This document shows, piece by piece, positions 1 to 59,441 of a DNA stretch of 64,000 nt. A program made the translations under genes and the position numbers. Every line of letters starts with the position of its first letter. The stretch's first letter is position 1. Below the pieces are notes generated by a model. It saw only the letters and a list, made by a program, of their open reading frames with translations. It had not been told where the DNA came from and ran no database searches. This DNA comes from Candidatus Nanoarchaeia archaeon (GTDB lineage Archaea > Nanobdellota > Nanobdellia > Woesearchaeales > DATDTY01), in the NCBI GenBank assembly GCA_035290625.1, contig DATDTY010000033.1, positions 20,482 through 84,481 on the forward strand, read 5' to 3'.

Positions 1-167
1 CAAGCATCAGGAAAATATTGGTCTTTCCCAAGCCCGTCGGCAGGACTATCAGCGTATTCCTGCGAGATGCAGAATCAAGGATGCTCTCCTGGTACAGCCT
101 GGGAGTAAAGTCCCGGATCACGCTTTGGAGGGAGCAGTGCGAGTTTAAATAGGTTGTTAGAACCAAA

Positions 168-323
168 GGCAGCGTTCAAAATCTCCCGGGTTGCCATCGG
201 CTCGCCTGAGCGTTCTAAGGAATAAAGCTGATATCCCCGAGGGGGCAAGTCCCCCTATCAGCTGTGCATCTGCCTGTAAAGAGGCTCGCAAGAATGGTGG
301 CAACCTTCATTTTGAACGCTGCC
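168..323. repeat. Diverged member of inverted-repeat element family 1 (156 bp). Perfect 15-bp terminal inverted repeats ggcagcgttcaaaat / attttgaacgctgcc. The inner second stem (ggttgccatc / ggtggcaacc) and the central ccccgaggggg hairpin are arranged as in the canonical copies.
   Basis: Inverted repeats, inner stems and a central gctgata-tccccgagggggcaagtccccc-tatcagc hairpin read directly. The architecture parallels the copies at 1636, 11286, 20934 and 50612 but uses different arm sequences. Flanked by tagaacca...tagaatca. Confidence 0.5.
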
Positions 324-328
324 TAGAA

Positions 329-661
329 TCAGATTTCTGTGCTTGACAAAATGCCTTTCTCATGGAGCCAGTAGGTTATCCAGGCTCCGGCAATAAAGAA
401 GACCACGATAAAATTCCGATTCGTGTACCAGCCTCCGATGATATAGCCGATCAGGAACCCAAGCAGGATGACAGACCAGGATACTTTAAATGTATCTTTC
501 TCCTGCCACCAGAGCCTTCCTCCTAATGCCCCAGCAATGAACACAATGATGTAGCTCACACCTTCTGTCGGAGCAGCAAGAGCGAGAACCAGACCGAGGA
601 CAAGGAAGAAGAATCCCACAATCTCCGGCCAATGATTGTGAAATTGCGCCTTTCTGTTCAT
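329..661 (-). CDS. Small integral membrane protein, about 110 aa with 3 predicted TM helices. Start taken at the internal Met MNRKAQF; the longer ORF overlaps the upstream gene out of frame.
   Basis: Hydrophobic helices in the translation. ATGA stop/start overlap with the upstream ORF at 658-661. Confidence 0.45.
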   Translation of the reverse strand: MNRKAQFHNHWPEIVGFFFLVLGLVLALAAPTEGVSYIIVFIAGALGGRLWWQEKDTFKVSWSVILLGFLIGYIIGGWYTNRNFIVVFFIAGAWITYWLHEKGILSSTEI

Positions 662-1407
662 ACCATCACCTTTGATTCCAAGAAGATGTAGTAGAGAAGC
701 CAGACGATTCCGCCAATCAGCAATGCCCAGAAGAACGAGAAGATACCTACGAAATAGATAAGGAGCCCGTATCCGACGATGCTGCCAACAGTAAAGGCGT
801 AGGTCAGGCGAGAATAATAGAAGAATCTGCTGCCATCCAGCGGAGGGATAGGCAGAAGGTTGCCGATACCATATGCCCAGCCGATGACAAACAGCTTTGA
901 TATCAACGCGCTCTGCCACCCGAACCAGATATCGAGCGTCTTAAAGAAGCTGACAAAAAGAATTGAAGCCAATGGCCCGGAGAAGGCAATTGTTCCGTAT
1001 GCTGTAATGTTTGTCCCAGGCCTGAACCACCCTAAGCGGTGCGCCGGAAGGAAGTGGAGAAAAACCCCTCCTGGTGCCAGGAGCCAGAACCTGCCTTTCG
1101 AGAGAAGCGCAATGATAAGCCCGATCCCAACCCCATACAGCCATAGTTTGTATTCCACCCTGAACCCCTGGTAGAATCCGTAGATCTTCTGGACTGAGAT
1201 GTGGACTAGAATGACTGCAGCAACAAGAACTAAGCTTTCTGTCATGTTCATGGCCCAATCAGTGATGTTGAAGGCCTCTCTCCTGTCATTGAATCCGATA
1301 ATGAATGCAGAAGCAATAATCGCTACCAACACCGCAATTGTCTCATTGTACTCAAAGCGGAAGTCTGTCTTCGTTTTGTAGATTACGTCTTGCACTTTCC
1401 AGGGCAT
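658..1407 (-). CDS. Polytopic membrane protein related to M50 / site-2 protease (NLLPIPPLDGSR motif). No HExxH found; the corresponding segment reads LVHISVQ.
   Basis: LLPIPPLDG motif characteristic of S2P/M50. Multiple TM segments. The zinc-binding HExxH is absent from the read translation. Confidence 0.5.
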   Translation of the reverse strand: MPWKVQDVIYKTKTDFRFEYNETIAVLVAIIASAFIIGFNDRREAFNITDWAMNMTESLVLVAAVILVHISVQKIYGFYQGFRVEYKLWLYGVGIGLIIALLSKGRFWLLAPGGVFLHFLPAHRLGWFRPGTNITAYGTIAFSGPLASILFVSFFKTLDIWFGWQSALISKLFVIGWAYGIGNLLPIPPLDGSRFFYYSRLTYAFTVGSIVGYGLLIYFVGIFSFFWALLIGGIVWLLYYIFLESKVMV

Positions 1408-1469
1408 GCAGCATTTCTAAGAAATTATGTATTTAAAGCTTTGGGCTCCTTAAGCTCTGTCCAGCTAAG

Positions 1470-1586
1470 GGTTGCCGCCCTTTCTGTGAGGTTTTGAACC
1501 AAGACATCAGCACCGACAAGGGAGTCGCCCCCATGGAGGAATGTCGGCTAGCAGCAGAAACAACGCAACCGAACTTGGCGGCAACC
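1470..1586. repeat. Structured repeat family 3, copy A (117 nt). Closed by the 10-bp stem GGUUGCCGCC ... GGCGGCAACC. Homologous to 46242..46359.
   Basis: Terminal 10-nt segments are exact reverse complements. Internal blocks (CUUUCUGUGAGG, AUCAGCAC, GAAACA) are shared with copy B. An outer 9-bp inverted repeat gctctgtcc/ggacagagc lies at 1453 and 1606. Confidence 0.45.
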
Positions 1587-1635
1587 CGATCCTCTATGAG
1601 ATTCAGGACAGAGCCTGTTGGCTTACCCTATGCTC

Positions 1636-1771
1636 GGCTCAGTAGAAAGTCAATCGGCATCGAGCTCGCTTGTGAGGGCATAGGCGATTGCTGACACCCC
1701 CGAGGGGGCATACCATCTGTCAGCAGTGCTGATGAAGCTCGCAAAAATGATGCCGGACTTTCTACTGAGCC
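1636..1771. mobile_element. MITE-like element family 1, copy 1 (136 bp). 16-bp perfect terminal inverted repeats GGCTCAGTAGAAAGTC / GACTTTCTACTGAGCC. 8-bp target-site duplication ctatgctc at 1628-1635 and 1773-1780.
   Basis: Inverted repeats and direct duplications read directly. Nested inner stems GGCATC/GATGCC and GCTGACA/TGTCAGC around a CCCCCGAGGGGG hairpin. The 3' end supplies the stop codon of the adjacent TraB-like gene. Confidence 0.75.
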
Positions 1772-11007: not shown

Positions 11008-11075
11008 TGCGGGGAGCAGGCAGCGCAACTCACTTCGTTCGTTGCTGGCCTGCTCTCCTCGTTCATTTCATTCAC
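11008..11075. repeat. tRNA minihelix-like element, 68 nt. Begins with a copy of the 13 3'-terminal nt of the adjacent tRNA (RC gcggggagcagg). Forms a hairpin with gcctgctctcc.
   Basis: Direct repeat of the tRNA 3' end 55 nt from the true tRNA end. About 90% identical to the units at 30357..30498, with compensatory differences. Confidence 0.55.
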
Positions 11076-11239
11076 TGCGGGGAGCAGGATTCGAACCTGC
11101 GTAGGCACTAAGCCAACAGATGGCCCGCCTGAGTAGTTCATCAGACCTGGGTGAGGACCTCAACACTCATGACTTGAGTATGGACGTTTTAGCGCCTGTC
11201 GCCAAACTCTGTCCCGTTTGGCCACTCCGGCATCCCCGC
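11076..11239 (-). tRNA. Intron-containing class II tRNA (Leu-like). Long variable arm UGGCUUAGUGCCUAC and discriminator A. 164 nt, implying an intron of about 80 nt. Anticodon unresolved.
   Basis: Acceptor GCGGGGA/UCCCCGC. D arm CCG-GAGUGGCCAAA-CGG. Anticodon stem ACAGA/UCUGU separated by 87 nt. T arm GCAGG-UUCGAAU-CCUGC. Near-identical scaffold to the tRNA-Leu at 30499..30582. Canonical 37/38 splicing would give the loop GUUUGGA. Confidence 0.6.
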
Positions 11240-11285
11240 ATTGTGCGGAGTAGAACGCCCCGTGTTTTAAATATGTTGCTTTTTG

Positions 11286-11525
11286 GGCTCAGTAGAAAGT
11301 CAGTCGGCAGTGGCTTGCAAGCGAGCAAGGCGAGCTTGCTCGCTAGCCACCGGCTCGCTTGTGCTTCCTTCACTGTTTGCTGACACCCCCGAAGGTGCTA
11401 AAAAGAGCCATGCTCTTTTGGCACATCAAAACGCCAGAGGGCGTTTTGATTGGGCCAACCCTCTGTCAGCGGTGCTATAAAAGTAAATAAGCTCGCAGAA
11501 AGGATGCCGGACTTTCTACTGAGCC
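11286..11525. mobile_element. MITE-like element family 1, copy 2 (240 bp; carries an extra internal palindromic insertion). Same 16-bp terminal inverted repeats. Flanked by tttttg.
   Basis: Terminal repeats identical to copy 1. The internal insert gcaagcgagcaaggcgagcttgctcgc is itself palindromic. Confidence 0.7.
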
Positions 11526-20933: not shown

Positions 20934-21078
20934 GGCTCTGTAGAAAGCCAATCGGCATCGGGCTCGCCTGTGGGGAGATAGGCGATTGCTGACACCCCCG
21001 AAGGGGTCTACCCCCTGTCAGCAGTGCTGATGAAGCTGAAGAAGCTCGCAAAAATGATGCCGGGCTTTCTACAGAGCC
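20934..21078. mobile_element. MITE-like element family 1, copy 3 (145 bp). Terminal repeats GGCTCTGTAGAAAGCC / GGCTTTCTACAGAGCC, with two compensatory base changes relative to the other copies. 7-bp flanking gtgaatc.
   Basis: A->T and T->C changes in the left arm are matched by T->A and A->G in the right arm. Internal 9-bp duplication gaagaagct. Confidence 0.7.
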
Positions 21079-21122
21079 CGTGAATCCTATAGTTTTATAA
21101 AATTCATGCCTCTTCTCTCTTT

Positions 21123-21980
21123 ATGGCCTATCTCTTTCGCTCTGTTGTTGGAAACGTCGTCTTTGATGAACACTTGAGCATCCTTGAGGGTTCTGCTGGA
21201 TCAGGCATTCAGGAGATTCCAGCACATCTCGTTCCAAAGGCGCTTAAGGCGCTCAAGGACCCCAGATTTTTCTCCTTGTTCAGGAAGGCGAACATTGAGC
21301 TGACGAAGGCAGACATCCGGACTGCTGTTACTGAAGACGTCCTGATCGTCCAGGCAGTCCATATGCTTGATGAACTCCATCGGGCGATGAATATGCTGAG
21401 CACCCAGTTCAGGGAATGGTATGGCTATTATAACCCTGAATTCTCATGGCAGCAGACAGACAACTCAAAATTTATTGACTGTGTTGCTTCCGGCGCTGCT
21501 CCAAAAGCCCTTGACAGCATGGGAGGCAATCTTTCCAAGAAAGATGCGGTTTTTCTGCAGGAGATGAGCATAAAGCTTGGCCAGCTCAACAGCCTGAAAG
21601 CTGATCTTGAGGAGTACCTTGACGGCCTGATGGGGCGAGTCTGCCCAAATGTGGCTGCAATCACCGGGTTTCTCATCGGAGCAAAGCTGCTCGAGAAGGC
21701 AGGATCTCTCCGCCGCCTCTCTGAACTTTCAAGCCAGACAGTCCAGGTATTGGGGGCAGAAAAGGCGTTGTTCAGGCATCTGCGGAATAAGAGGATGCTT
21801 CCGCCAAAATATGGCCTGCTCCATGAGCATCCCCTGATCATGAAAGCACCGAAGGCTGAGCACGGCAAGCGCGCCCGGTTTTTGGCAGACAAGATTGCGA
21901 TTGCATCGAAGGTCGATTATTTCAAGGGCCCTTTTATAGGAGACCGGATCACTAATGAACTGCATCAGAGGTTTCCATGA
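21123..21980 (+). CDS. nop5: C/D-box snoRNP protein Nop5 (Nop56/58 homolog), short form apparently lacking the coiled-coil domain
   Basis: NOP5 N-terminal domain. Nop domain AAITGFLIGAKLLEKAGSL ... GAEKALFRHL. Operon with fibrillarin. Confidence 0.8.
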   Translation: MAYLFRSVVGNVVFDEHLSILEGSAGSGIQEIPAHLVPKALKALKDPRFFSLFRKANIELTKADIRTAVTEDVLIVQAVHMLDELHRAMNMLSTQFREWYGYYNPEFSWQQTDNSKFIDCVASGAAPKALDSMGGNLSKKDAVFLQEMSIKLGQLNSLKADLEEYLDGLMGRVCPNVAAITGFLIGAKLLEKAGSLRRLSELSSQTVQVLGAEKALFRHLRNKRMLPPKYGLLHEHPLIMKAPKAEHGKRARFLADKIAIASKVDYFKGPFIGDRITNELHQRFP

Positions 21981-30361: not shown

Positions 30362-30498
30362 GATGTATGCGGGAGACAGGCAGCGCAACTCACTTCGCTC
30401 GTTGCTGGTCTGTCTTCCTCGCTCATTTCATTCACTGCGGGAGACAGGCAGCGGAATTCGCTGCGCTCATTCCTGGTCTGTCTCCCTTGTCTTTTGAC
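30357..30498. repeat. Two tandem tRNA minihelix-like units (about 70 nt each). Each ends, in tRNA sense, with the 13-nt tRNA-Leu 3' end CCUGUCUCCCGCA. The first overlaps the L18e start codon.
   Basis: tgcgggagacagg occurs three times in direct orientation (30357, 30431, 30499). Units are about 90% identical to 11008..11075. Hairpin arms gggagacaggc / gtctgtcttcc. Confidence 0.55.
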
Positions 30499-30582
30499 TG
30501 CGGGAGACAGGATTCGAACCTGCGTAGGCACTAAGCCACATGGTCCTTAGCCATGCCCGTTTGACCGCTCCGGCACTCCCGC
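30499..30582 (-). tRNA. tRNA-Leu, class II, anticodon read as AAG (loop CUAAGGA), 84 nt, no intron
   Basis: Acceptor GCGGGAG/CUCCCGC. D arm CCG-GAGCGGUCAAA-CGG. Anticodon stem CAUGG/CCAUG. Variable arm UGGCUUAGUGCCUAC. T arm GCAGG-UUCGAAU-CCUGU. Discriminator A. Confidence 0.75.
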
Positions 30583-30593
30583 AAACCGGACTG

Positions 30594-33361: not shown

Positions 33362-36064
33362 ATGGTTTTAAGAAAATTAACTAAAGAACAGGCGAAAGAA
33401 GAAGTTAAGAAATTAGTAGACAAATATGTCAGGATAGTTGAATCCGGCTCTATTAAAAGATACAAAGAAGAGGATACAAAAGCGGAGTTTATCGAGCCGT
33501 TATTTGAAGCGTTAGGTTGGGATGTCAGAAATACAGAAAATGATGATGAGGTAGTAAGAGAAGAAAAAATCTCAAAGGGCAGAGTAGATTACTCTTTTAG
33601 GATTAATGGAATACCTAAATTTTTCTTGGAAGCAAAAGCACTAAAAGAGGATTTAGACAATATCAAATTCGTGGAACAGGCAGTAAATTATTCCTGGCAC
33701 AAAGGCTGTACCTGGGCAGTCCTTACCGATTTTGAAGCTATCAAGATTTTTAATGCTGAATGGAAAAGCGCAAACCCTTTACAGGCACAATTCGGGCAAA
33801 CCTTGCCTTGTCAATTATTCTTAGAAAAATTTGATACTTTGTGGCTTTTATCAAGAGAAAGCTTTGAGAAGAAACTTCTTGATATTGAAGCAGAAAAATG
33901 GGGTAAAAAAATAAAAAAAACAGCTGTTGATAAACAGCTTTTAAGTGATTTGACAAGATTCAGGGATTTGCTAAACAAGAATATTCTAAAAAATAATTCT
34001 TCAAAGAATATTTCTGGCGATGAATTAGACGAAGCCGTCCAGCGCATAATTGACAGATTAATCTTCATCAGAACTCTTGAAGATAAAGAATTAGAAGCCC
34101 CCATGTTGCAGTCAGTCATCAGGGAGGATTTAAACAAAAGAATCTACAAAAAATTAAACCTCATTTTCAGAAAAATCGATGACATTTACAACAGCAAACT
34201 ATTTACTCCTCACTTATGCGAAGATTTGGACGTAGATGATGAGGTTTTATCAAAGATAATTGGTGGATTGTTTGCTACAACCGATAATACTGTGCGTTAT
34301 GACTTTTCTGCTATTGACGCTGATGTTTTAGGCAACATTTACGAGCAATATTTAGGGCATATTCTAAAGAAAACTGATAAAAGAGCCAAATTAGCAGAGG
34401 GGAAAGCACACAGAAAAGAACAGGGAATATATTATACTCCCACTTATGTAGTAGACTACATTGTTAAAAATACAGTTGGTGAATTAGCTAAAGACAAAAA
34501 ATTTGATTTAAAGAATGTCAAGATTTTAGACCCTGCCTGCGGCTCTGGCTCATTCTTAATGAAAGCATTTGATTATCTTGTCACTCTTGACAAAAAGAAG
34601 AATGGGGAAGTCGACCAGACAAAGCTTGATTTAACTGGGGCTGGCGCTTCATACGGGAGGAAAGTGGAGATATTGAAAAATAATATTTTTGGCGTCGATT
34701 TAGACCCTAAGGCTGTAGAGATAGCTCAGTTGAACTTACTATTGAAAGCAGCAGAGAAAAAACACAGACTGCCAACACTACAAGAGAATATTAAGGTAGG
34801 AAATTCATTAATTGATGATTCTGCTATTGCAGGGAATAGGGCTTTCAAATGGGAAGAACAATTTAAGGATATTATAGCTGATGGTGGGTTTGATGTGGTG
34901 ATTGGGAATCCGCCTTATGTCGAAGCAAGGCAAATAGGACAAAAGTATGTTGATTTTTATAGGGGAAATTTTAAAACCGCCGGTAATAGAATTAATACAT
35001 TCTCTCTATTTATTGAAAAATCAATTAGTTTGTTAAGTGAACATGGCTTATTCGGGATGATAGTGCATAAAAATAGCATACGTTCAAATGATTACATAAA
35101 ATTAAGACAATTTGTTTTGGATAATTGTAAAATATTAAAGATACTTCCAATAGGCGCAGGTGTTTTTGAAGGAGTAACTGGAGAAATGGTTATTCTAATA
35201 TTTCAGAAAGATAGCAATATGAAAGAAAGATTGAAGAATATTGTTTTTCACGGTGGAAAAGATTCAATGTCAAACAAGACTTCTTACCAAAAATTATCTC
35301 AAAGAATCTTTTATGAAATTCCTGGTAATAGATTTAATGTTTATCTAAATGAAACGAAAATAAAAATATTAGAAAAAATAAAAAGCGAGAGTATTGAGCT
35401 TAAAGAAATTGCTTATACTAAACAAGGGATAATTGTTGGAGACGAAGAAAAATATGTCAAAAAAACGAAAGAATCTGAAAAATATAAACCTGTTTTGCGT
35501 GGTAGGAATATATCTAGATATAATATAACCTTTGGCAATGAATATTTATTTTACGTACCAGGTACAGCAGTACTAAAAAGAGGAAAAACACCAGACTTAT
35601 TTGAGAAACCAGAGAAAATTTTGACACAACATGTTTCCGGGAGAATTATAGCCGCTCTGGATTGTGATGAGTATTATGCTTTGCAAACAATTAATCTTAT
35701 TTTCTCAAAGGGTAAAATTTCAAATAAATATCTCTTGGCACTACTCAACAGCAAATTAATTAATTTTTATTACGATAGCTATTTTAATATGGGTTCTGAG
35801 TTTACTACGGCAGTTGCAACAGAAAATTTAGATTTATTACCTATAAAACAAATTCCGGAAAAACAACAGCCCATTATTAAACTAGCAGATAAAATGATTT
35901 CTCTTAACAAAAATCTTAATGGATTAAAAGACAAGCAAACCGACGAAAAAGCCCGTCTTGAGAAAGAAATCCAGAAACTAGATTCTGAAATTGACGAAGA
36001 AGTTTACAAATTGTACGGCATAACAGAAGAAGAAAAGAAGATAATTGAGGAGAGCTTGAAATGA
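33362..36064 (+). CDS. Type IIG (MmeI/Eco57I-like) single-chain restriction-modification enzyme. N-terminal PD-(D/E)xK nuclease, central gamma-class N6-adenine methyltransferase, C-terminal target-recognition region.
   Basis: GRVDYSF ... FFLEAKAL nuclease motif. DPACGSGSFLM (motif I). VIGNPPYV (motif IV). 900 aa. About 33% GC, against roughly 50% in flanking genes. Confidence 0.75.
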   Translation: MVLRKLTKEQAKEEVKKLVDKYVRIVESGSIKRYKEEDTKAEFIEPLFEALGWDVRNTENDDEVVREEKISKGRVDYSFRINGIPKFFLEAKALKEDLDNIKFVEQAVNYSWHKGCTWAVLTDFEAIKIFNAEWKSANPLQAQFGQTLPCQLFLEKFDTLWLLSRESFEKKLLDIEAEKWGKKIKKTAVDKQLLSDLTRFRDLLNKNILKNNSSKNISGDELDEAVQRIIDRLIFIRTLEDKELEAPMLQSVIREDLNKRIYKKLNLIFRKIDDIYNSKLFTPHLCEDLDVDDEVLSKIIGGLFATTDNTVRYDFSAIDADVLGNIYEQYLGHILKKTDKRAKLAEGKAHRKEQGIYYTPTYVVDYIVKNTVGELAKDKKFDLKNVKILDPACGSGSFLMKAFDYLVTLDKKKNGEVDQTKLDLTGAGASYGRKVEILKNNIFGVDLDPKAVEIAQLNLLLKAAEKKHRLPTLQENIKVGNSLIDDSAIAGNRAFKWEEQFKDIIADGGFDVVIGNPPYVEARQIGQKYVDFYRGNFKTAGNRINTFSLFIEKSISLLSEHGLFGMIVHKNSIRSNDYIKLRQFVLDNCKILKILPIGAGVFEGVTGEMVILIFQKDSNMKERLKNIVFHGGKDSMSNKTSYQKLSQRIFYEIPGNRFNVYLNETKIKILEKIKSESIELKEIAYTKQGIIVGDEEKYVKKTKESEKYKPVLRGRNISRYNITFGNEYLFYVPGTAVLKRGKTPDLFEKPEKILTQHVSGRIIAALDCDEYYALQTINLIFSKGKISNKYLLALLNSKLINFYYDSYFNMGSEFTTAVATENLDLLPIKQIPEKQQPIIKLADKMISLNKNLNGLKDKQTDEKARLEKEIQKLDSEIDEEVYKLYGITEEEKKIIEESLK

Positions 36065-36921
36065 CTGAAAAAGATAAAGCTCTCGTTGTCTTCCAAGACA
36101 GGAAAATAAGGAGAGTATGGCATCAAAACCTGTGGTTTTTTTCAGTAATTGATATTGTAGCTATTTTGACGGAACAAGAAGACCCGTATACTGCAAGAAA
36201 ATACTGGAATAAGCTGAGCCAACGGCTAAGAGAAGAGGGAAGCGAAGTGGTGACAAATTGTCACCGGTTGAAACTTCCGGCAGAAGATGGAAAGCTAAGA
36301 GAAACCGATTGCGCTAATACTGAAAGCATATTTAGGATTATCCAATCAATTCCATCAAGGAACGCAGAACCATTCAAAAGATGGCTTGCTAAAGTTGGGT
36401 ATGAGCGTGTGCAGGAAATAGAAAACCCTGAACTAGCGCAGGAGCGCATGAAAGAGCTTTATGAGCAGAAAGGATATTCAAAATCATGGATTGACAAACG
36501 GCTGAGAGGAGTAGCAGTAAGACAAGATCTCACTGATGAATGGAAGAAGAGAGGAATTGAAAGCCAAGACGATTTTTCAATACTCACTGCGGAAATATCA
36601 AAAGCCACTTTCGGCATGACTCCAAGTGAATACAAAAAATTCAAAGGGCTTACAAAGGAAAACCTAAGAGACCATATGAGGGATTTAGAACTCATATTTA
36701 CCATGCTAGGAGAAGCATCAACTGCGGAGATTGAACGCATAAAAGACCCTGTTAAGTTCGCTGAGCACAAAAAAGCATCTAAGGAAGGTGGGAATGTAGC
36801 GAAAAAAGCAAGACTCGAGCTAGAAAAAAAGACGAAAAGCCCGGTTGCGAGCAGAGAAAATTACCTTGAAGAGCCTGAAAAAGAAAAGCGAAAAAGGCTA
36901 CCTGAACCTGAAAAGGATTGA
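36061..36921 (+). CDS. Bro-N-like N-terminal domain plus DinD-like (DNA-damage-inducible protein D family) C-terminal domain; paralog 1
   Basis: ALVVFQDRKIRRVWHQNLWFFSVIDIVAIL (Bro-N / KilA-N-like). KGLTKENLRDHMRDLELIFTMLGE resembles E. coli DinD KGLKKNQKILDHMGSTEL. ATGA overlap with the RM stop. Confidence 0.5.
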   Translation: MTEKDKALVVFQDRKIRRVWHQNLWFFSVIDIVAILTEQEDPYTARKYWNKLSQRLREEGSEVVTNCHRLKLPAEDGKLRETDCANTESIFRIIQSIPSRNAEPFKRWLAKVGYERVQEIENPELAQERMKELYEQKGYSKSWIDKRLRGVAVRQDLTDEWKKRGIESQDDFSILTAEISKATFGMTPSEYKKFKGLTKENLRDHMRDLELIFTMLGEASTAEIERIKDPVKFAEHKKASKEGGNVAKKARLELEKKTKSPVASRENYLEEPEKEKRKRLPEPEKD

Positions 36922-36931
36922 TGATAAGATA

Positions 36932-37003
36932 GGTGAGAAAGTCCACAAGCTCTACGGCATAACTGATGAAGAAAAGAAGCTTATTGAGGATTCATTAAAA
37001 TGA
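36932..37003 (+). pseudogene. Relic 3' fragment (24 codons, GEKVHKLYGITDEEKKLIEDSLK*) of a second RM gene. About 75% nt identity to 35992..36063. Preceded by in-frame stops.
   Basis: Direct comparison: gtccacaagctctacggcataactgatgaagaaaagaagcttattgaggattcattaaaatga versus gtttacaaattgtacggcataacagaagaagaaaagaagataattgaggagagcttgaaatga. The same ATGA stop/start overlap with the downstream gene is present. Confidence 0.6.
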
Positions 37004-37245
37004 CTCAAAAAACACTTGACGGAAAAGACGTTGAAGAGCCAAGTATTTGGTCAGATGGCTCTTTTGCTGAAACTCTTGGTCCGTCAGATATGAAAGTAAA
37101 GATGCGTACTTTTCATATGAAACACGATGAGGAAATGGATTTCAACTGCTCAAATTGCAAGGTTAAAATTTCAGCTCATAACAAGGACTGGCACAATGGA
37201 ATGTGTGATAAGTGTTTCAATAAGGAGTTTTTCCCAGAGGATTAA
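37000..37245 (+). CDS. Small Cys-rich (zinc-ribbon-like) protein, 81 aa
   Basis: CSNCKV ... CDKC motif. Confidence 0.4.
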   Translation: MTQKTLDGKDVEEPSIWSDGSFAETLGPSDMKVKMRTFHMKHDEEMDFNCSNCKVKISAHNKDWHNGMCDKCFNKEFFPED

Positions 37246-37247
37246 AA

Positions 37248-38099
37248 ATGGACAAAGACAAGGCTCTCGTAGCATTTCAGGATAAGAAAATCAGGAGGAT
37301 TTGGTACAATCAGGAATGGTTTTACTCGGTTATTGGCATCGTTGAAGTTCTTACAGACAGCCCAACTCCTAGGCAGTATTGGGGAAAAGTCAAAGACAGA
37401 GAATTCATAGCTCTTGAACTGTCCCCAATTTGGGTACAGTTGAAATTGGCAGCAGAAGATGGCAAATTGCGGTTTACGGACTGTGTTAACACCAAAAATG
37501 CCTTTAGGCTAATTCAATCCATTCCTTCAAAGAAAGCAGAGCCTTTCAAACAATGGCTTGCGCAATTGGCTCAAGAGCGCATTGAGGAGATAGAAAATCC
37601 TGAATTAGCCCAAGATAGGGTGAAAGAATACTATGAACTCAAAGGTTATCCGAAGGATTGGATAGACAAGCGTCTGAGAGGCATTGCCATACGGCAGGAA
37701 TTGACTGATGAATGGAAAGATCGAGGCGTCACAGAAGAAACAAATTTTGCAATCCTCACAAACGAGATAAGCAAAGCAACTTTTGGAAAGACTGTTCAGG
37801 AATACAAGGAACTCAAAGGCCTTAAGAAAAAGAATCAAAACCTCAGAGACCACATGACAGATTGGGAACTCATATTCAATATGCTGGGAGAAAAGGCCAC
37901 AACCGACATCACAAGGACAAGAGACGCACAAGGATTTGAGGAAAATAAGCAAGCTGCGAGAAGAGGAGGCCAAATAGCCCATAATGCGAGAAAAGAACTG
38001 GAACAAGAAACAGGCAAATCCGTGATCTCAAAAGATAATTTTCTAAGCCTTACTGAACAGAAAAAGCTCGAAAACAAGAAGAAAAACGACAAGAAATAG
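37248..38099 (+). CDS. Bro-N-like plus DinD-like protein; paralog 2
   Basis: ALVAFQDKKIRRIWYNQEWFYSVIGIVEVL. KGLKKKNQNLRDHMTDWELIFNMLGE. Roughly 55% identical to paralog 1 over the aligned regions I compared by eye. Confidence 0.5.
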   Translation: MDKDKALVAFQDKKIRRIWYNQEWFYSVIGIVEVLTDSPTPRQYWGKVKDREFIALELSPIWVQLKLAAEDGKLRFTDCVNTKNAFRLIQSIPSKKAEPFKQWLAQLAQERIEEIENPELAQDRVKEYYELKGYPKDWIDKRLRGIAIRQELTDEWKDRGVTEETNFAILTNEISKATFGKTVQEYKELKGLKKKNQNLRDHMTDWELIFNMLGEKATTDITRTRDAQGFEENKQAARRGGQIAHNARKELEQETGKSVISKDNFLSLTEQKKLENKKKNDKK

Positions 38100-44596: not shown

Positions 44597-44998
44597 GACT
44601 TTCCTCATCATCTTTACCCTGGACTGCACTTTCTTGAGAAGCTGGGTCTTTGAGTAGGCTTTCTTAATATCCCGGGCAAGGGTCTTATCTTCAATGACCT
44701 CCTGGATCCATTTTGCGAAGTCGTTCTTCTTTCTATTGACGTGGTAGATGAACGTGTGGTTGCTCATGATCTTTAGCTCTCTGACCAGCTCGCTCAAATT
44801 CTTGATGATTGGTCCTTCCATGATCCAGAAGCTTTTTTCAGGACTTACGTTCCGAAGGTATTTCCGCGCAGTATCCCTTGTTACCTTTGGCTTCTTTCGC
44901 CTCGTAGCCTTTGCTGCGCTCTTTCCTTGCTCTTTTTTGACCTTATGGCCTGTTTTAGAATGAGACCTGAGATTTCCTCTTTTACCTCTTTTTGGCAT
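44588..44998 (-). CDS. Hypothetical protein with a highly basic N-terminal tail; start at MPKRGKRG
   Basis: ORF. K/R-rich N-terminus. Confidence 0.35.
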   Translation of the reverse strand: MPKRGKRGNLRSHSKTGHKVKKEQGKSAAKATRRKKPKVTRDTARKYLRNVSPEKSFWIMEGPIIKNLSELVRELKIMSNHTFIYHVNRKKNDFAKWIQEVIEDKTLARDIKKAYSKTQLLKKVQSRVKMMRKVLS

Positions 44999-45089
44999 TT
45001 CCACCCCTCCAATCAGCATTCCAGAGAACACTTCCTTTTAAATCTTTTGGTACAAACTTACTACTACTCTAGAAAAGTGAGATAGGCAG

Positions 45090-45163
45090 AGTGGCCATCG
45101 GGATTTGAACCCGAGCCGAGAGATCCACAGTCTCTAATGCTGCCAGACTACACCATGGCCACC
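45090..45163 (-). tRNA. tRNA-His (anticodon GUG) with genome-encoded G-1; discriminator U
   Basis: Acceptor GUGGCCA/UGGCCAC preceded by G. Anticodon stem AGAGA/UCUCU with loop CUGUGGA. T arm UCGGG-UUCAAAU-CCCGA. Confidence 0.8.
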
Positions 45164-45207
45164 ACTTTACGAAGAAACTGCTTCAGAGTTTATAAGTTTT
45201 TGTAGCC

Positions 45208-45660
45208 TTACTTGGAGACAAAGCCCCGAACATAAGCGAGGTATTCCTTCGCTTTCTCATAATACTGGGTGACCACGTCAATGTTAATCTCAACTGGCTT
45301 CCCATCAACCTTGGCCAGCATCGCAACATGCCGTCGGTATTCCCGCGTCTTTGTGTATTCAACCAACATGAGCTTCCTCAGGTCGCTGTAAAGGGAGATA
45401 AACTCTATCAGCTTGCTGTCCTTGCTATACAGCTTGCGTATCAGCTCTGCCCGGGTCCCTGGATTTGAAGGGATCTCATCGATCTTCTTCCTGCTTTTTG
45501 CGTATTTGAGGAGGGATTCTATCAGAAAGTCAAAGCAGGCGATACATCTCTCTATTCCGTGGCGGATCATGTCAACTGTCCGCGTATACTTGAGGCTCAC
45601 AAAAATCAGGTGATCCACACGCTTTAGCTCTTCTGCTGCTTCGTCTAACGCTTCCTGCAT
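45208..45660 (-). CDS. Hypothetical protein (150 aa)
   Basis: ORF only. Confidence 0.35.
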   Translation of the reverse strand: MQEALDEAAEELKRVDHLIFVSLKYTRTVDMIRHGIERCIACFDFLIESLLKYAKSRKKIDEIPSNPGTRAELIRKLYSKDSKLIEFISLYSDLRKLMLVEYTKTREYRRHVAMLAKVDGKPVEINIDVVTQYYEKAKEYLAYVRGFVSK

Positions 45661-45670
45661 TCTAGAATAC

Positions 45671-45997
45671 TCAACTCCTTAAGCTCAGGATCGCCTCTGC
45701 GAGATCTCCGGATGATTCTTTCAAAGCTCTCTCGGCCTCTGCTTTCGTTACTTTTGCCTGTTCCATAACTGTCTCTATATCCTCTTCTGAAACCTCAGAA
45801 TCCCGTTCCACCGCATGGCCAACCACTTGGTAGGTCTCCTGGCCGCCAATATCTATCTTTGAAACACTCGGGTTCTGAATAACGATCTCTTTCTCGGGAG
45901 TCCGGATGATTACTTCCCGGGCCTCTATCTCAGTCTGCTGGAGGCCCATCCTCTTCATCATCATCTTTACCTGCCTGCTGTTGATTCCGGGGATCAT
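45671..45997 (-). CDS. nac: Nascent polypeptide-associated complex alpha subunit (NAC domain plus C-terminal UBA-like region)
   Basis: MMKRMGLQ ... EIVIQNPSVSKI ... C-terminal AEAERALKESSGDLAEAI. Confidence 0.75.
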   Translation of the reverse strand: MIPGINSRQVKMMMKRMGLQQTEIEAREVIIRTPEKEIVIQNPSVSKIDIGGQETYQVVGHAVERDSEVSEEDIETVMEQAKVTKAEAERALKESSGDLAEAILSLRS

Positions 45998-46000
45998 CAG

Positions 46001-46177
46001 CTCACCCAATTCCAAGAAGCGCGTTTCCCTGAATGTGCAGGGAGATTATTATAAGGATGATAATCACTGCAATAATGATAATGTGGCCGGGCTTAAGCGT
46101 GATCTTTGATTTATACTCATCGAAATACCTTGTCAAGCCACCCATGCCTGAGGGAAGATGGATCCTGTCCTGCGCCA
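46001..46177 (-). CDS. secG: Preprotein translocase Sec61 beta subunit (archaeal SecG/Sbh homolog), 58 aa. Missed by the ORF track, which lists an out-of-frame ORF 46117..46371 instead.
   Basis: Manual translation MAQDRIHLPSGMGGLTRYFDEYKSKITLKPGHIIIIAVIIILIIISLHIQGNALLGIG carries the GL(T/I)RYF motif followed by a single TM helix. Confidence 0.7.
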
Positions 46178-46241
46178 TACCCCTTATAAGTCTGTGTTTG
46201 TTTAAATAGTTTTGCTATCGTTTTGACCTGGCCCGATTGGA

Positions 46242-46359
46242 GGTTGCCGCCTCTTTCGCGAGGCACAATAACTCCTATCAGCACAAGCGGAGGGGGTCGT
46301 CCCATACGGGGCGGTGCCGCTCTTCGCTGGAAACAGCAAGAGCCGAGCTGGCGGCAACC
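46242..46359. repeat. Structured repeat family 3, copy B (118 nt). Same GGUUGCCGCC ... GGCGGCAACC closing stem as copy A. Contains a GAAA tetraloop hairpin CUGGAAACAG. Flanked by an 18-bp direct repeat ctatcgttttgacctggc (46215-46232 and 46388-46405).
   Basis: Terminal complementarity and flanking duplication read directly. Shares the AUCAGCAC and GAAACA blocks with copy A. Confidence 0.45.
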
Positions 46360-46915
46360 CGAACCATGCAAGATTTGGGGTAGTGCCCTATCGTTTTGAC
46401 CTGGCTGGTTCTGAAGAAGTCCTTATAATCTCATCCGGAAATCCGTACTCGAACGGAAATCCGTACTCGAAGTATACCTTACTAGAAGTATAGAATTATG
46501 GGCAGAAATAAGCCGCCTTTTGTGGGGCCCTCCCCTTTTGGAAAGGTTCATCGAAGGCCCTGCCAGCATTTGACTTAGCGTTCTGTGAACTTGCACAAGC
46601 CGGGGCTCGCCTTTCATCCATTCACAGGAAAATCCATTGGATTTTCCTGTCCCGGAAAATCTCTGATTTTCTCGGGCCTCAAAATCGTCTGCAGGTTATC
46701 TCAGTTTTGTCGCCAAAACCTTCTCATGCGTCTTCCTCTTTGAGGGGGGTCTTGTTTCTGCGCGGTTGCCATCCCTTTCGAGATGTGCCTCTCGGCACCG
46801 GCTGCTCCATCCTAAATAAGGGAATTTAACCCTTATCTTCGGACTTCAGTGGGCGGACTTTCCTCAGTTTCCCGAAAGCCAGCTTTCTGCCCGCTTTCTG
46901 AAAAGCTCCGCTCAT

Positions 46916-48046
46916 TTATAAACCTTTATCCTCCATTTTCTGCTCTTTTCTGAACAGCAGGATCCTAAACTCTTTTTTCCCCTGCCAGATAGATCTCCTC
47001 TCTTTGATGATGAACTGGCGCTTTTTTGCGGCCTCTTCAACCTTCTCCGGCTTGGGGGTCAGCAGTGCGATAACTCCCTCTTTTCTTAAGATGTATTCTG
47101 CAGCGTAAAAGAATTCATTGAGCAGCTTTTCTCCTCCCTTGTCATCCAAACCTTCCGGCAGCCTTGTGATAATCTTGTCTACGCTTTCTTTCTCAAAGCG
47201 CGTATCCAGCCATTCTGTCTCAATCTTTGAGAAGCGAATTGCTGAGCAGCCTGCAATCTTTGCGTTCTTCTCAGCAGCACGAACATTCCTCATCTCGGGG
47301 TCGGCGGCGGTGATGCCGAGTTGCGGCTTCTTGTACTCTCTATCGATATTCTCAAACCATTTTAGGATTCTTGGCTGGCTTGTTAGCTTTTGCTTCTCGA
47401 AAAAACGAACAGGCCGCTCTCTTGCGAGGCATGCCTCAATGGCGATTTCTCCGCTTCTGCAAAATGGATCAAGGATGGTTTCGTCCTTTTTTATCTCTGC
47501 TATCCTGCAGAGGGCAAATGCTGTTGTGCCGGTAATGCCTTGAGGGTGTGTGAAAATCCTGTAGGTGCGTTTTCCCAGATCCAGCTTTGTTATGTCCCTG
47601 CTTATGCTGATACCCTTGTTGGTGGCTGAAACGAGGATGGTCTGCTCTGGGTTCTCAAGATCCACTTCCAGGATATTCCTGCTTTTGGCCTTGATGCATT
47701 CCCCACAACCAGCCTCTATCTCTTTAGCAGTATGCTCAGGATCCTCTCTGGTTAGCGATTCCACCTTAAAGCTTCCCTTGAGCCAGCCCCACCTGCATTT
47801 GTTGATCATGCCTCTGGCTTGGTCCAGGATATCGTCGCTCTTTTCTTCCCTAATCAGAAGTTCTCCAATCCGGTGAATACTCTGGGCGCAGTACGCGACC
47901 TTCCACACGGCATCTTCGGAGGCGTCAAACACCACCTCTTTCTCATTGATTGTTGCGTGCGCAGAGATTAATTCGCTGATCTCTTTCTCTGCAGCCTCTT
48001 CAGCTCCCCTTTGGGTATAGGCAACCGCCTTCAGAACCTTCCTCAT
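46916..48046 (-). CDS. THUMP-domain RNA methyltransferase (Trm14 / tRNA m2G6-like)
   Basis: N-terminal THUMP-like region. [15 protein letters not shown] (motif I). Class I MTase fold. Confidence 0.65.
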
Positions 48047-50611: not shown

Positions 50612-50753
50612 GGGCTCAGTAGAAAGTCAATTGGCATCAGACTCGCTTGCGCTCGTATTCGTGTATGCTGCCCCCCGAAGTTGGCAACTCTGTCAGCAGT
50701 GGTTATGACTGCAAAGAAGCTCGCAAAAATGATGCCGGACTTTCTACTGAGCC
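50612..50753. mobile_element. MITE-like element family 1, copy 4 (142 bp). 16-bp terminal repeats identical to copy 1. Perfect 8-bp target-site duplication gtattgag (50604-50611 and 50754-50761).
   Basis: Terminal repeats and abutting direct duplications read directly. Lies upstream of gyrA. Confidence 0.8.
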
Positions 50754-52448: not shown

Positions 52449-52496
52449 GACCTTTTGGTATACCCTTGCTTATAAAAATCTTTCCAGCCAATGGTG

Positions 52497-52896
52497 GCAT
52501 TGAAAAGTCATGCAATGCCCTTTGTGAGCCTTCTATTCAAAGTACAGAACAGCGACAAAGGGGTTGCTCCATACGGAAAATGTCGATTCCCATGAGAGTA
52601 TGCGCAAGGCGAAGTCGGCATTGCCGAACGAAGTGAGCAACTTTTCAATGCGACCCAGCCAACGGCTCTACTGAAACCCCCGGCAGTGCCCATTTGCGAG
52701 GCTTCTCCATGACTAACGGCGCATCGACAAGAAGGCTGTCTCATCCGGAGAATGTCGATTTAAATCCAAGGCATTCCGAGCCGAGCCTGGCACTGCCTGC
52801 GAAGCGTTTCAGCAGAGCCCAGCCCAGAGCGCTATTGAAAAGCCATGCAACGCCAACTTGCGAGGCTTAAGAGCAACCGCTTCCCTCGAGCAACGA
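52497..52896. repeat. Repeat family 2: about 2.3 degenerate tandem copies of a roughly 170-bp unit bounded by cattgaaaagt ... acttttcaatg
   Basis: Unit 1 (52497..52655) has a 12-bp terminal inverted repeat gcattgaaaagt/acttttcaatgc. Shared blocks ttgcgaggcttct, aatgtcgatt, ggcattgcc recur in units 2 and 3. Confidence 0.55.
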
Positions 52897-52923
52897 ATTA
52901 CTCAACCCAGCATCACACAGAAA

Positions 52924-59235: not shown

Positions 59236-59278
59236 GCAAGAGTCAAGAAAAAAGGTGTGTTTAAAAAGTTATTGGGCT

Positions 59279-59441
59279 GGTGCCATTGAAAAGTTGCTAG
59301 CTTCGCTCGGCAGCGCCAAGTTCGCCATGCGCAGATGCTAAGGAAAAACGACATTCTCCGAAGGCGCCAACCCTCTTGTCGTTGCACAGTCTTTTGTTCC
59401 AATGGCTCACAGGAGGGCGCTGCATAACTTTTCAATGGCGC
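59279..59441. repeat. Repeat family 2, single inverted copy (163 bp) with terminal inverted repeats around ccattgaaaagtt / aacttttcaatgg. Flanked by a 7-bp direct repeat ttgggct (59272-59278 and 59442-59448).
   Basis: The reverse complement aligns along the whole length with unit 1 at 52497..52655 (shared cattgaaaagt, tgtgagcc, ggagaatgtcg, tgcgca, agcaacttttcaatg). Confidence 0.55.

Follow-up and report, generated by a model that had tools for sequence, protein, structure and literature searches.

A probable MITE family with a folded core, a promoter-edge insertion bias and IS903-like partners in DPANN-type archaea

A hairpin-closed element of about 118 nt recurs in the 64,000-nucleotide stretch of a woesearchaeal genome analysed here (the window), and the question it raises is whether it represents a small structured RNA or a mobile element. 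The original prediction described two copies, copy A at 1470-1586 (117 nt) and copy B at 46242-46359 (118 nt). Both positions are correct, the terminal 10-mers of the two copies are identical and exactly complementary (GGTTGCCGCC/GGCGGCAACC), and the internal blocks reported as common to them are real. The same holds for the perfect 18-bp direct repeat CTATCGTTTTGACCTGGC flanking copy B (46215-46232 and 46388-46405), the 9-bp inverted repeat enclosing copy A (GCTCTGTCC, 1454-1462, and GGACAGAGC, 1606-1614) and the inner stem GGTTGCCATC/GGTGGCAACC of a further element at 168-323. With at most one mismatch, the two strands together contain the stem 10-mer 12 times where shuffles predict 2.4, and none of 100 shuffles reached 12; the four exact matches are the stems of copies A and B. 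We consider it highly probable that these copies belong to a MITE family of DPANN-type archaea, moved in trans by an IS5-family (IS903-like) insertion sequence (IS), with a bias towards promoter edges and a folded core.

Copies in the window and in related genomes

The count of two copies proved too low. A covariance model built from relatives (R1) recovers 10 full copies in the window, on both strands, in addition to which there is one truncated copy. The suspected kinship with a second set of repeats, "family 1", was well founded but understated, as family 1 is the same family on the opposite strand; its elements score 55, 50, 37, 25 and 24 bits with the covariance model on the minus strand. 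What had been taken for a stand-alone, two-copy small RNA is most probably the conserved core of a MITE that recurs about once every 6.4 kb. The copies and associated features are listed below (TIR, terminal inverted repeat; P, helix of the core; scores are those of the covariance model).

167..323, minus strand: MITE copy ("family 1"); core 179-310; 55.4 bits; TIR AGGCAGCGTTCAAAAT, identical to that of the autonomous IS of locus L070; target duplication 158-166/324-332, 7/9 matching
1430..1437: TATA box TATTTAAA, promoter of the divergent leaderless gene 658-1407 (minus strand)
1454..1615, plus strand: MITE copy A; core 1466-1595; 79.3 bits; P1 1470-1479/1577-1586; P3 1513-1518/1542-1547; tandem G·A 1488-1489/1571-1572; right TIR GATTCAGGACAGAGCC intact (1600-1615), left TIR decayed (GCTCTGTCC, 1454-1462); target duplication degenerate, none clear; start ~16-19 nt from the centre of the TATA box at 1430..1437
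1636..1771, minus strand: MITE copy, convergent with copy A; TIR GGCTCAGTAGAAAGTC; 37.4 bits; target duplication 1627-1635/1772-1780, 8/9 matching; overlaps the stop codon of the TraB-family gene 1762-2472
11286..11525, minus strand: MITE copy of 240 bp with an internal insertion; TIR GGCTCAGTAGAAAGTC; 34.8 bits; TATA box 11266-11273 ~17-18 nt off its end
20934..21078, minus strand: MITE copy; TIR GGCTCTGTAGAAAGCC; 50 bits; target duplication 20925-20933/21079-21087, 7/9 matching; abuts the promoter (TATA 21093-21102) of the Nop5-like gene 21123-21980
46201..46208: TATA box TTTAAATA of a divergent leaderless gene on the minus strand (ATG 46178-46176)
46215..46232: left 18-bp direct repeat of copy B; its first 9 nt, CTATCGTTT, are the canonical target position beside BRE/TATA
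46233..46387, plus strand: MITE copy B; core 46237-46369; P1 46242-46251/46350-46359; 66 bits
46388..46405: right 18-bp direct repeat of copy B
50613..50753, minus strand: MITE copy; TIR GGCTCAGTAGAAAGTC; 9-bp duplication CTCAATACG; 24.4 bits
52493..52655, plus strand: MITE copy C; TIR GGTGGCATTGAAAAGT; closing stem GCAATGCC/GGCATTGC; 77.8 bits; optional P5 tandem-GA hairpin present; closest copy to the promoter (TATA 52470-52477) of gene 51810-52448
52664..52819, plus strand: MITE copy D, in tandem with C, with which it has the target CCAGCC in common; closing stem GGCAGTGCC/GGCACTGCC; 77.7 bits
52829..52900 (end approximate), plus strand: truncated copy F, keeping just the left TIR, the 5' strand of P1 and the UGCGAGG motif
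59280..59441, minus strand: MITE copy E, between pyrG and secF; closing stem GCAGCGCC/GGCGCTGC; 74.9 bits; duplication AGCCCAA abuts the secF promoter (TATA 59260-59267)

The elements make up ~2.8% of the window, in which a repeat scan yielded no additional terminal-repeat copies and no transposase gene was recognised among ~20 ORFs scanned against protein families. In near-identical strain contigs aligned to the window (99.6-100% identity) copy B is always present and no empty site was seen; contigs encoding the neighbouring protein, compared by gene spacing, agree with the window around copies C, D and F. Copies at loci L073, L077, L093 and L074 are very similar to copy C, because they have long stretches of exact 31-mers in common with it.

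Run on the window together with 27 genome loci, model R1 identified 37 copies; 80 metagenome and viral loci gave 104, with the viral locus contributing none. MAGs of Woesearchaeota/Nanoarchaeota and metagenomes of the groundwater type contain over 100 copies, in a sample that is biased to intact cores because detection relied on the core model. The genome matches came from Woesearchaeota/Nanoarchaeota-type MAGs in 25 of 27 cases. Two matches in Actinomycetota genomes (L010, L020) had no R1 match and are attributed to chance, as is a single pattern match in a viral contig that the model did not confirm. The density reaches five copies in 13.5 kb at one locus (L089), and some DPANN genomes have a copy every 3-6 kb. 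The P1 strand of copies A and B, GGTTGCCGCC, is one of the two commonest variants of this helix in the family. In one census (PMC11602168), a woesearchaeal genome ranks with the archaeal genomes of highest MITE density; its elements are left uncharacterised there.

Terminal repeats, target duplications and partner insertion sequences

Each copy spans ~145-240 bp and consists of TIRs of 13-17 bp of the IS903 type (GGCTTTGTTGAA...) around a core of ~130 nt, the whole being flanked by a 9-bp target duplication. The unit of ~118 nt originally described is thus real, but merely the core of this longer one. Of the 107 unique copies, most have TIRs, forming an outer stem, that are complementary at 11-12 of 12 positions. 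Each site has its own flanking 9-mer, and many copies have it perfectly duplicated (for example TATGGATAG, GAATTAGTC, TAAAGAGTA and CCTTCAACA): at automatically chosen boundaries, 21 of the 107 unique copies have a perfect 9/9 duplication, compared with none of the displaced control sites, and 48 of 107 have at least 8/9 matching once boundaries are allowed to move by as much as 5 nt. The copies themselves encode nothing; on inspection, reading frames on the sense strand soon break off. One subfamily begins with 12 nt, GGCTTTGTTGAA, that are those of the inverted repeat of IS903B, for which a 9-bp direct repeat and the inverted-repeat sequence are given in PMC10569121; the MITE TIR GGCTTTGTTGAAAATG was compared with the IS903B repeat GGCTTTGTTGAATAAATC.

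The repeats that attracted attention to copies A and B fit into this architecture. The 18-bp repeat of copy B is an atypical case, composed of the canonical 9-bp target (CTATCGTTT) and the following 9 nt; both TIRs of this copy are non-canonical and complementary at just 6 of 12 positions. The outer 9-bp inverted repeat of copy A is what remains of the transposon TIR, and matches the repeat GGGCTCTGTCCTGAATC of an autonomous IS at locus L081. Of the two routes of insertion proposed at the outset, transposition stands and site-specific recombination does not, because the flanking repeats are 9 bp long and different at every copy, whereas the att core of an integrase would be constant.

Candidate sources of the transposase are IS elements of ~900 bp of the IS5 family, with inverted repeats of the MITE type and 9-bp duplications. 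The IS at locus L070 (positions 9-910, TIR GGCAGCGTTCAAAAT) encodes a transposase with a DDE_Tnp_1 domain (PF01609, E 6e-21) that matches the NCBIfam model NF033579, "IS5 family transposase", with 145.6 bits, above the cut-off of 140; this IS adjoins a MITE of identical TIR, and this TIR is also that of window copy 167-323. The L081 IS carries the TIR of copy A (GGGCTCTGTCCTGAAT), and its transposase scores 123 bits with NF033579, under the cut-off. NF033579 is likewise the best model for the IS903B transposase (356 bits). Three further IS elements (L121, L124 and L125; ~899-908 bp) have TIRs matching at 14 of 14 positions (GGGTGCGTTCAAAATC, GGCTGCGTTGAAAATC) that are closely similar to those of the MITEs, duplications matching at 9 of 9, and ends of the type GGG/GGC. 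Homologous transposases numbered 619 at E<=1e-20, one of them titled "MAG: transposase [Nanoarchaeota archaeon]". The IS903 group as defined in ISfinder has 9-bp duplications, ends that start with GGC and a length of ~0.9-1.1 kb. The partners and their matching ends are observed; on this sequence evidence, an IS5/IS903-type transposase is the most likely agent of movement, and the MITE copies would be mobilised in trans by the ~900-bp IS5-family (IS903-like) insertion sequences.

Two other identities were weighed against this assignment. If the copies were a family of stand-alone structured RNA genes (riboswitch-, ribozyme- or guide-like), with the flanking repeats incidental, the strong covariation and conserved unpaired nucleotides would be accounted for, as would copy B, which combines a very stable fold (-62.6 kcal/mol, z -6.2) with decayed terminal repeats. 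As a sole explanation this is contradicted by the duplications and the IS partners: dozens of copies have TIRs and site-specific 9-bp duplications, autonomous IS elements have matching ends, and the copies lack a constant downstream gene, a constant orientation and a match to any Rfam family. We therefore regard it as very improbable. Rfam searches at the gathering threshold returned three tRNAs and nothing else from the window; at E<=10, the region 100-1850 had no match, and 46100-46700 matched just the neighbouring RNase P RNA and, by chance, a miRNA model (E 7.6), neither of which overlaps copy B. The exclusion of a single-copy housekeeping RNA in the original prediction agrees with the lack of an Rfam match at E<=10 across the copy A and B regions. 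A SINE-like retroelement, or an element integrated by a site-specific recombinase, could explain the long 18-bp direct repeat of copy B. The duplication length is constant at 9 bp, however, A-rich or simple-repeat tails are absent, the repeat sequence is specific to each site with no common att core, and the partners are DDE transposases instead of reverse transcriptases or integrases, which leaves this origin exceedingly improbable; no integrase was seen near the copies.

Several more specific candidates were discarded. On inspection, CUGAUGU/CUGAUAG is not a hammerhead core, and neither a C/D box arrangement nor an ACA box of a guide RNA is present. A K-turn is rejected, there being no 3-nt bulge beside the tandem G·A. 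The 11-30 kb region is not an integrated element bounded by tRNA-Leu repeats, as its genes are housekeeping genes.

Position relative to promoters

The insertions are strongly biased to one position, with the 9-bp target lying against the upstream BRE/TATA edge, in either orientation. A TATA hexamer is centred 17-22 nt from an end in 31 of 48 well-bounded copies (17 left, 14 right), where the background hexamer density of 0.0017 per nt predicts about one of 48. The distances are very narrowly distributed and peak at 18-20 nt. Empty sites reconstructed for 32 copies have TWTWWAAA at -14 to -7 and TT at -4/-3, followed by the 9-bp target, and are devoid of signal on the other side. Copy B conforms to this pattern: its 9-bp target begins 6 nt past the TATA box at 46201..46208, immediately after a BRE-like TT. 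The nearby TATA boxes are promoters of the neighbouring genes and lie outside the target duplication. In about one third of the well-bounded copies no strict TATA hexamer stands at this distance; many such copies adjoin another element or have weaker TATA-like boxes. In the autonomous IS elements L121, L124 and L125, a TATA hexamer is centred 16-18 nt off one end.

How this bias arises may be viewed in two ways. We take it to reflect active targeting, for example of DNA that is bent or bound by TBP/TFB. In a wider form of this proposal, which we put forward tentatively, an archaeal IS5/IS903-type transposase and its dependent MITEs would read promoter architecture and make a 9-bp staggered cut at the upstream BRE/TATA edge, perhaps by way of TBP/TFB-bound or TBP-bent DNA, and the core would act beside promoters as an insulator, a terminator, a regulatory RNA or a protein platform instead of being junk. 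Alternatively, the position could result from purifying selection alone, if compact genomes tolerate insertions just in the few bases upstream of BRE. Coding density is indeed high, and some sites are forced: at copy E, 6 nt separate the pyrG stop codon from the target, and copy 167-323 directly adjoins the stop codon of the gene upstream. Against selection of this kind speaks the very narrow distance distribution with its peak at 18-20 nt, and on their far side the insertions are bordered by a median of ~59 nt, and by up to >300 nt, of spare non-coding DNA. Moreover, the same 9-mer has been hit repeatedly (copies C, D and F; L001; L035), and recent copies with perfect duplications have the same spacing, as do autonomous IS copies. 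Selection as the only cause is in our estimation unlikely.

The folded core and its counterparts

The core of ~130 nt is predicted to form a rod with helices P1-P4. P1, the 10-bp stem, is followed by a 5-nt pyrimidine bulge, P2 with an invariant tandem G·A (GYGAG/CGARC), a variable helix, P3 (CGACA/UGUCG) and an apex with a G-run/C-run/G-run motif. In the alignment, 88.2% of cells are paired compared with 36-46% in slid controls, and the covariation score is 0.533 as against 0.186 in shuffles, with double changes at 23 of 28 pairs. Of 108 copies, 107-108 retain the tandem GA, which has covarying Watson-Crick pairs on either side (33-199: UA 53, CG 45). The P4 pair 81-157 alternates between U·G and C-G (UG 42, CG 27). 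An optional second tandem-GA hairpin occurs in 36 of 100 copies compared with 3.6% of shuffles. G·U shows no excess over A·C in P1-P3 (33 vs 56, 10 vs 8 and 6 vs 7). At the apex, columns 71/82/157 (78 vs 18) and 72/83/156 display a triple covariation between G/C/G and A/T/A. Copies with decayed duplications keep their cores (88.8% paired vs 91.0%), a comparison of ages that is confounded because copies are found through the core. The core does not descend from the IS and is probably kept by selection on a folded single strand.

Three structural proposals were set aside. Descent of the core from two long IS ends joined together (a "long TIR" origin) is at odds with IS interiors, whose only sequence in common with the MITE is the terminal repeat of 15-16 nt. 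In most copies the J1/2 pyrimidines could pair with the AAGGGGG run as a pseudoknot, but mostly by U·G and without covariation. An antiparallel hairpin between G-run 1 and the C-run is contradicted by A72 occurring with C84 in 12 copies and A74 with C82 in 15.

What the core does can be framed in terms of RNA or of folded DNA, and we regard each of these possibilities as speculative. As a structured non-coding RNA or a transcript segment, the core could stabilise, terminate or insulate transcripts beside promoters, or bind a protein through its tandem G·A. The very strong covariation in P1-P3 is consistent with such a role, as are features specific to the sense strand, namely the invariant tandem G·A in a YGAR context, the U·G/C-G alternation in P4 and the optional second tandem-GA hairpin. 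Five window copies are in sense orientation just 3' of a gene on the same strand, and a TATA box lies ~25 nt upstream of several copies. On the other hand, P1-P3 lack the G·U excess typical of RNA, the elements are randomly oriented towards the neighbouring promoter (17 vs 14), and this promoter fires away from the element. A run of five T tends to terminate archaeal transcription, and the T5 run in J1/2 of many copies would tend to end transcripts before the fold is complete; the absence of an Rfam match also speaks against an RNA. A role as RNA is compatible with the element being a MITE, since it concerns the purpose of the core.

As folded DNA, the core might extrude as a hairpin or cruciform and so join the terminal repeats of the ~160-bp element for the transposase, with selection acting on DNA pairing; this too is conceivable rather than probable. 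In P1-P3, wobble pairs are as rare as A·C mismatches, which is what a need for pairing in both strands, or in DNA, would predict. Sheared tandem G·A in DNA is known to obey a YGAR rule, with which the motif in the core agrees, and 16 of 100 linkers contain GCGAAGC, a very stable DNA mini-hairpin. The triple covariation, in which the first purine run is parallel to the C-run, fits purine-motif G·G-C/A·A-T triples, although it may stem from few ancestral events instead of many independent ones; a gyrase is encoded in the window. Against folded DNA stand the autonomous IS copies, which do without the core, and the conserved asymmetric loops, which it leaves unaccounted for. Furthermore, we know of no need for single-stranded or cruciform substrates in DDE transposition of the IS5/IS903 type.

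Among known systems, the archaeal elements resemble the IS903 group of the IS5 family in having TIRs that start with GGC, a 9-bp duplication and an IS of ~0.9 kb with a single DDE_Tnp_1 transposase. They differ from IS903B in their DPANN-type archaeal host and in the partner transposase, which is 27% identical over 137 aa, and from IS903 in being tied to the upstream BRE/TATA edge, a preference that to our knowledge has not been described for IS903. Unlike in IS5-derived MITEs, the interior is an unrelated, conserved and covarying 130-nt module and not a deletion derivative of IS ends. ERIC, the Correia elements of Neisseria, bcr1 of Bacillus and pneumococcal BOX/RUP are non-coding imperfect palindromes of ~100-200 bp with many intergenic copies, whose structure potential is conserved beyond the apparent needs of transposition. 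The archaeal MITEs are likewise short, multicopy, intergenic and structured; they are distinguished by another transposase family and duplication length, the archaeal host, the fixed position with respect to promoters and the motif set of tandem G·A plus G-run/C-run/G-run apex, and have no sequence similarity to these elements. In integron attC sites, which are imperfect palindromes, structure is conserved far above sequence and unpaired features are strand-specific, as in the MITE core. A tyrosine recombinase acts on attC sites in the form of folded single strands, and these sites have no target duplications, whereas the MITEs have terminal repeats, 9-bp duplications and DDE transposases.

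The insertion position has its counterparts among retroelements. Yeast Ty3 integrates at Pol III start sites via TFIIIB, and Ty1, Tf1 and Dictyostelium TRE are also guided by promoters or initiation complexes; archaeal TBP/TFB are homologues of TBP/Brf1. Like these elements, the MITEs insert in both orientations and at a constant short spacing from a promoter element bound by TBP, and an interaction with TBP/TFB may be hypothesised. Ty3, Ty1, Tf1 and TRE are LTR or non-LTR retroelements with integrases or endonucleases, while the archaeal system is a DDE IS/MITE pair, and insertion lies upstream of BRE and not, as in Ty3, at the start site.

Identification of the repeats as MITEs accounts for conspicuous structured sequences that could otherwise be mistaken for novel RNA genes, and provides a tractable IS/MITE pair for uncultured archaea with defined ends, duplication and transposase. 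Since the core is highly conserved and covarying and yet unrelated to the parent IS, the question of why some MITEs keep structure becomes testable. Active targeting, if true, would be the first promoter-architecture-guided DNA transposition in archaea, as far as we know, and would make the insertions a natural promoter marker in unculturable genomes. If these elements do read promoters, they would represent a prokaryotic DDE-transposon analogue of Ty3/TFIIIB targeting.

Extent of the repeat family

The original prediction described the elements at 1470-1586 (copy A, 117 nt) and 46242-46359 (copy B, 118 nt) as a small RNA in two copies, with a hint of mobility. Lengths and positions hold, as do the identical closing stems (GGTTGCCGCC...GGCGGCAACC in both), and the feature is real and non-random. 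The closing 10-mer occurs 12 times in the window with at most one mismatch (2.4 expected); the four exact matches are all stems of copies A and B. An Rfam scan returned no family for either copy. The two-copy reading had to be abandoned because the window contains ten copies and a truncated eleventh with MITE hallmarks, whereas the hint of mobility was borne out by outer inverted repeats and site-specific 9-bp duplications. The family is a MITE of the IS5/IS903 type, a known kind.

A repeat scan found the centre of copy A (CACCGACAAGGGAG...GGAATGTCGG) again at 52550, 52722 and 59345, in elements with the same internal motifs and different closing stems (GCAATGCC/GGCATTGC, GGCAGTGCC/GGCACTGCC and GCAGCGCC/GGCGCTGC). 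Searching species-representative genomes with a pattern made from the internal motifs of these window elements yielded 27 loci, 25 of them in MAGs of Woesearchaeota/Nanoarchaeota type, which often hold several loci each. From 29 sequences we derived a structure (P1, the 10-bp closing stem; P2, which contains a tandem G·A; P3; P4) together with a covariance model, which found ten copies when run unfiltered on the window.

Window copies found by the covariance model, and the adjoining truncated copy
1470-1586, plus strand, copy A
46242-46359, plus strand, copy B
Within the tandem cluster 52493-52900, plus strand, copies C and D
59280-59441, minus strand, copy E
179-310, minus strand, 'family 1' element
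1643-1763, minus strand, 'family 1' element
11352-11499, minus strand, 'family 1' element
20941-21069, minus strand, 'family 1' element
50620-50745, minus strand, 'family 1' element
Directly after copy D, truncated eleventh copy (copy F)

All five elements previously set apart as 'family 1' match this one model, so that the kinship proposed between the two families is closer than claimed: they are one family. The 10-mers common to copies A and B are one of its two commonest P1 variants. The same pattern retrieved 79 metagenome loci, the window not among them, in which the model gives 104 copies at densities of up to five per 13.5 kb; several of these loci have long runs of exact 31-mers in common with copy C.

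Terminal repeats and autonomous partners

Almost all copies have outer inverted repeats of 13-17 bp at their ends and, immediately next to these, 9-bp direct repeats that have a different sequence at each site. At the automatic boundary, a perfect 9/9 duplication was present in 21 of 107 unique copies and in none of the displaced controls; allowing a boundary shift of a few bases, 48/107 had a duplication of at least 8/9. The terminal repeats differ by subfamily (GGCTCAGTAGAAAATG, GGTTGGTGCGAAATTG, GGCTTCCCTGAAAATG, GGCAGCGTTCAAAATG and GGCTTTGTTGAAAATG), and the last equals the inverted repeat of IS903B over 12 nt; IS903B duplications are 9-bp (PMC10569121). Variants of ~205 nt (metagenome loci L040 2046-2260, L058, L033, L080 and L061) have one hairpin more, CAAAAATGC-GAAG-CATTTTTG, and the P1 3' strand occurs in them a second time after the core. 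One subfamily (L049, L038, L073:10097, L086:261, L060) is nested in a further inverted repeat, GTTAAGTAAAGTTTCC ... GGAAGTTAAC..CTTTACTTAAC, and may represent a larger composite element.

With the IS903B transposase as query, phmmer singled out one ORF, in L070, among all ORFs of the loci. It belongs to an autonomous IS of ~900 bp (9-910) with terminal repeats GGCAGCGTTCAAAATC / ...TTTTTGAACGCTGCC; the MITE directly beside this IS and the window copy at 167-323 end in the same repeat. The transposase gives a DDE_Tnp_1 match at E 6e-21 and scores above the cut-off of the NCBIfam IS5-family model NF033579, the best-matching model for the IS903B transposase as well. A second IS, in L081, shares the terminal repeat of copy A (GGGCTCTGTCCTGAATC). 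Homologous transposases numbered 619 at E<=1e-20, mostly on ~1-kb contigs; three IS copies on longer contigs measure 900-908 bp, with terminal repeats of 14/14 and duplications of 9/9. In the L070 and L081 ISs, the transposase reading frame (84-977 and 834-1775, respectively) is still open at the right terminal repeat and continues beyond it, the stop codon coming from flanking DNA. The IS interiors have only the terminal 15-16 nt in common with the MITE, which rules out the core as a remnant of IS ends.

The structured core and neighbouring features

Among 108 aligned copies, pairing holds in 88% of cells, compared with 36-46% for slid partners, and in 23 of 28 pairs both partners vary. At pair 33-199, for instance, 53 copies have U-A and 45 have C-G; at pair 62-169, G-C occurs 41 times, C-G 38 times and U-A 19 times. 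The tandem G·A (GYGAG/CGARC) is retained in 107-108/108 copies, and a second tandem-GA mini-hairpin (CGAGC-loop-GCGAG) occupies the 3' linker in 36/100 copies (3.6% of shuffles). In the apex motif, AAGGGGG-AYG-UCCC-UUAC-GGGGAA, the first purine run is parallel to the C-run, and columns 71/82/157 covary three ways (G/C/G in 78 copies, A/T/A in 18). The pattern agrees with G·G-C / A·A-T triples, but it may reflect few evolutionary events.

The core may act as an RNA, as a folded DNA or, as a candidate role, as a protein-binding platform. Unlike in typical functional RNAs, G·U is not in excess over A·C in P1-P3, which is compatible with a constraint at the DNA level or on both strands. By contrast, strand specificity is seen in the tandem G·A and in the U·G pairs of P4.

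An intron-containing, Leu-like tRNA with a long variable arm lies at ~11075-11240 (minus strand), found only by ARAGORN with introns allowed; its label, Gln(ttg), is doubtful. The 80-nt intron contains CUGAUGA, and the 3' half is 91% identical to tRNA-Leu 30498-30583. Both Leu-type genes are followed closely by repeat units of 52-68 nt (11008-11059, 30368-30419, 30436-30487), each of which ends in the tRNA's own 3' acceptor strand and forms, by eye, a putative hairpin whose apical CGARC-GAA-GUGAG is the mini-hairpin of the MITE linker. Elsewhere, in adjacent genes at 33-38 kb, two segment pairs of 71-74% identity (35981-36072 / 36920-37011 and 36659-36747 / 37837-37925, spaced 939 and 1178 nt) indicate tandemly duplicated gene modules.

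Copies A and B and the position at promoters

Copy B has a very stable predicted fold (-62.6 kcal/mol, z = -6.2); that of copy A is weaker (z = -1.8). The perfect 18-bp direct repeat reported around copy B (46215-46232 / 46388-46405) was confirmed and extends the canonical 9-mer by the nine bases that follow; despite it, the ends are non-canonical. Also confirmed was the 9-bp inverted repeat enclosing copy A (1454-1462 / 1606-1614). Copy A is an older copy without a clear duplication, its right end intact and its left end decayed. It adjoins the promoter of gene 658-1407 at its edge and is convergent with the copy at 1636-1771; copy B stands at canonical distance from the TATA box (46201-46208) of a divergent gene.

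About 95 nt from copy B lies an archaeal RNase P RNA (46500-46892, minus strand) that covers the whole Rfam model at 77.8 bits (E 8e-22), below the gathering score of 84, and was therefore missed by the default scan; with 393 nt to the 288 of the model, the RNA is divergent and contains insertions. One strain contig (ENA ERZ5996431, locus L111) is 99.8% identical to 44971-49015 and then diverges completely. The break, at ~44971, and the tRNA-His gene (45089-45162) are about 120 nt apart, in a region that is strain-variable.

A TATA hexamer is centred 17-22 nt (peak 18-20) outside one end in 31/48 well-bounded copies (left 17, right 14), whereas the window-wide hexamer density predicts about one of 48. 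In 32 reconstructed empty sites, the TATA box at -14 to -7 and TT at -4/-3, an A-rich BRE on the gene's strand, precede the 9-bp target; the start codon lies ~23-25 nt beyond the TATA box, the gene being mostly leaderless, and the opposite side of the target has no conserved signal. Transcription from such a promoter thus runs away from the element, and the upstream edge of the BRE borders directly on the target.

Selection in compact genomes could also produce this position. Against selection alone, the far side still holds further non-coding DNA (median ~59 nt), autonomous IS copies keep the same TATA spacing, and insertions pile up repeatedly at one promoter edge (C-D-F at 52493-52900, L001 2832-3187, L035), with one 9-bp target shared or used again. 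Within the window stack, C, nearest the promoter, has long exact stretches in common with copies from other metagenome contigs, and F, the most distant one, is truncated; this suggests the order of arrival. We infer that the element actively chooses the promoter edge as its target. Two traits are unusual for a MITE of a known kind: the structured cargo is strongly conserved, and the position relative to archaeal promoters is fixed.
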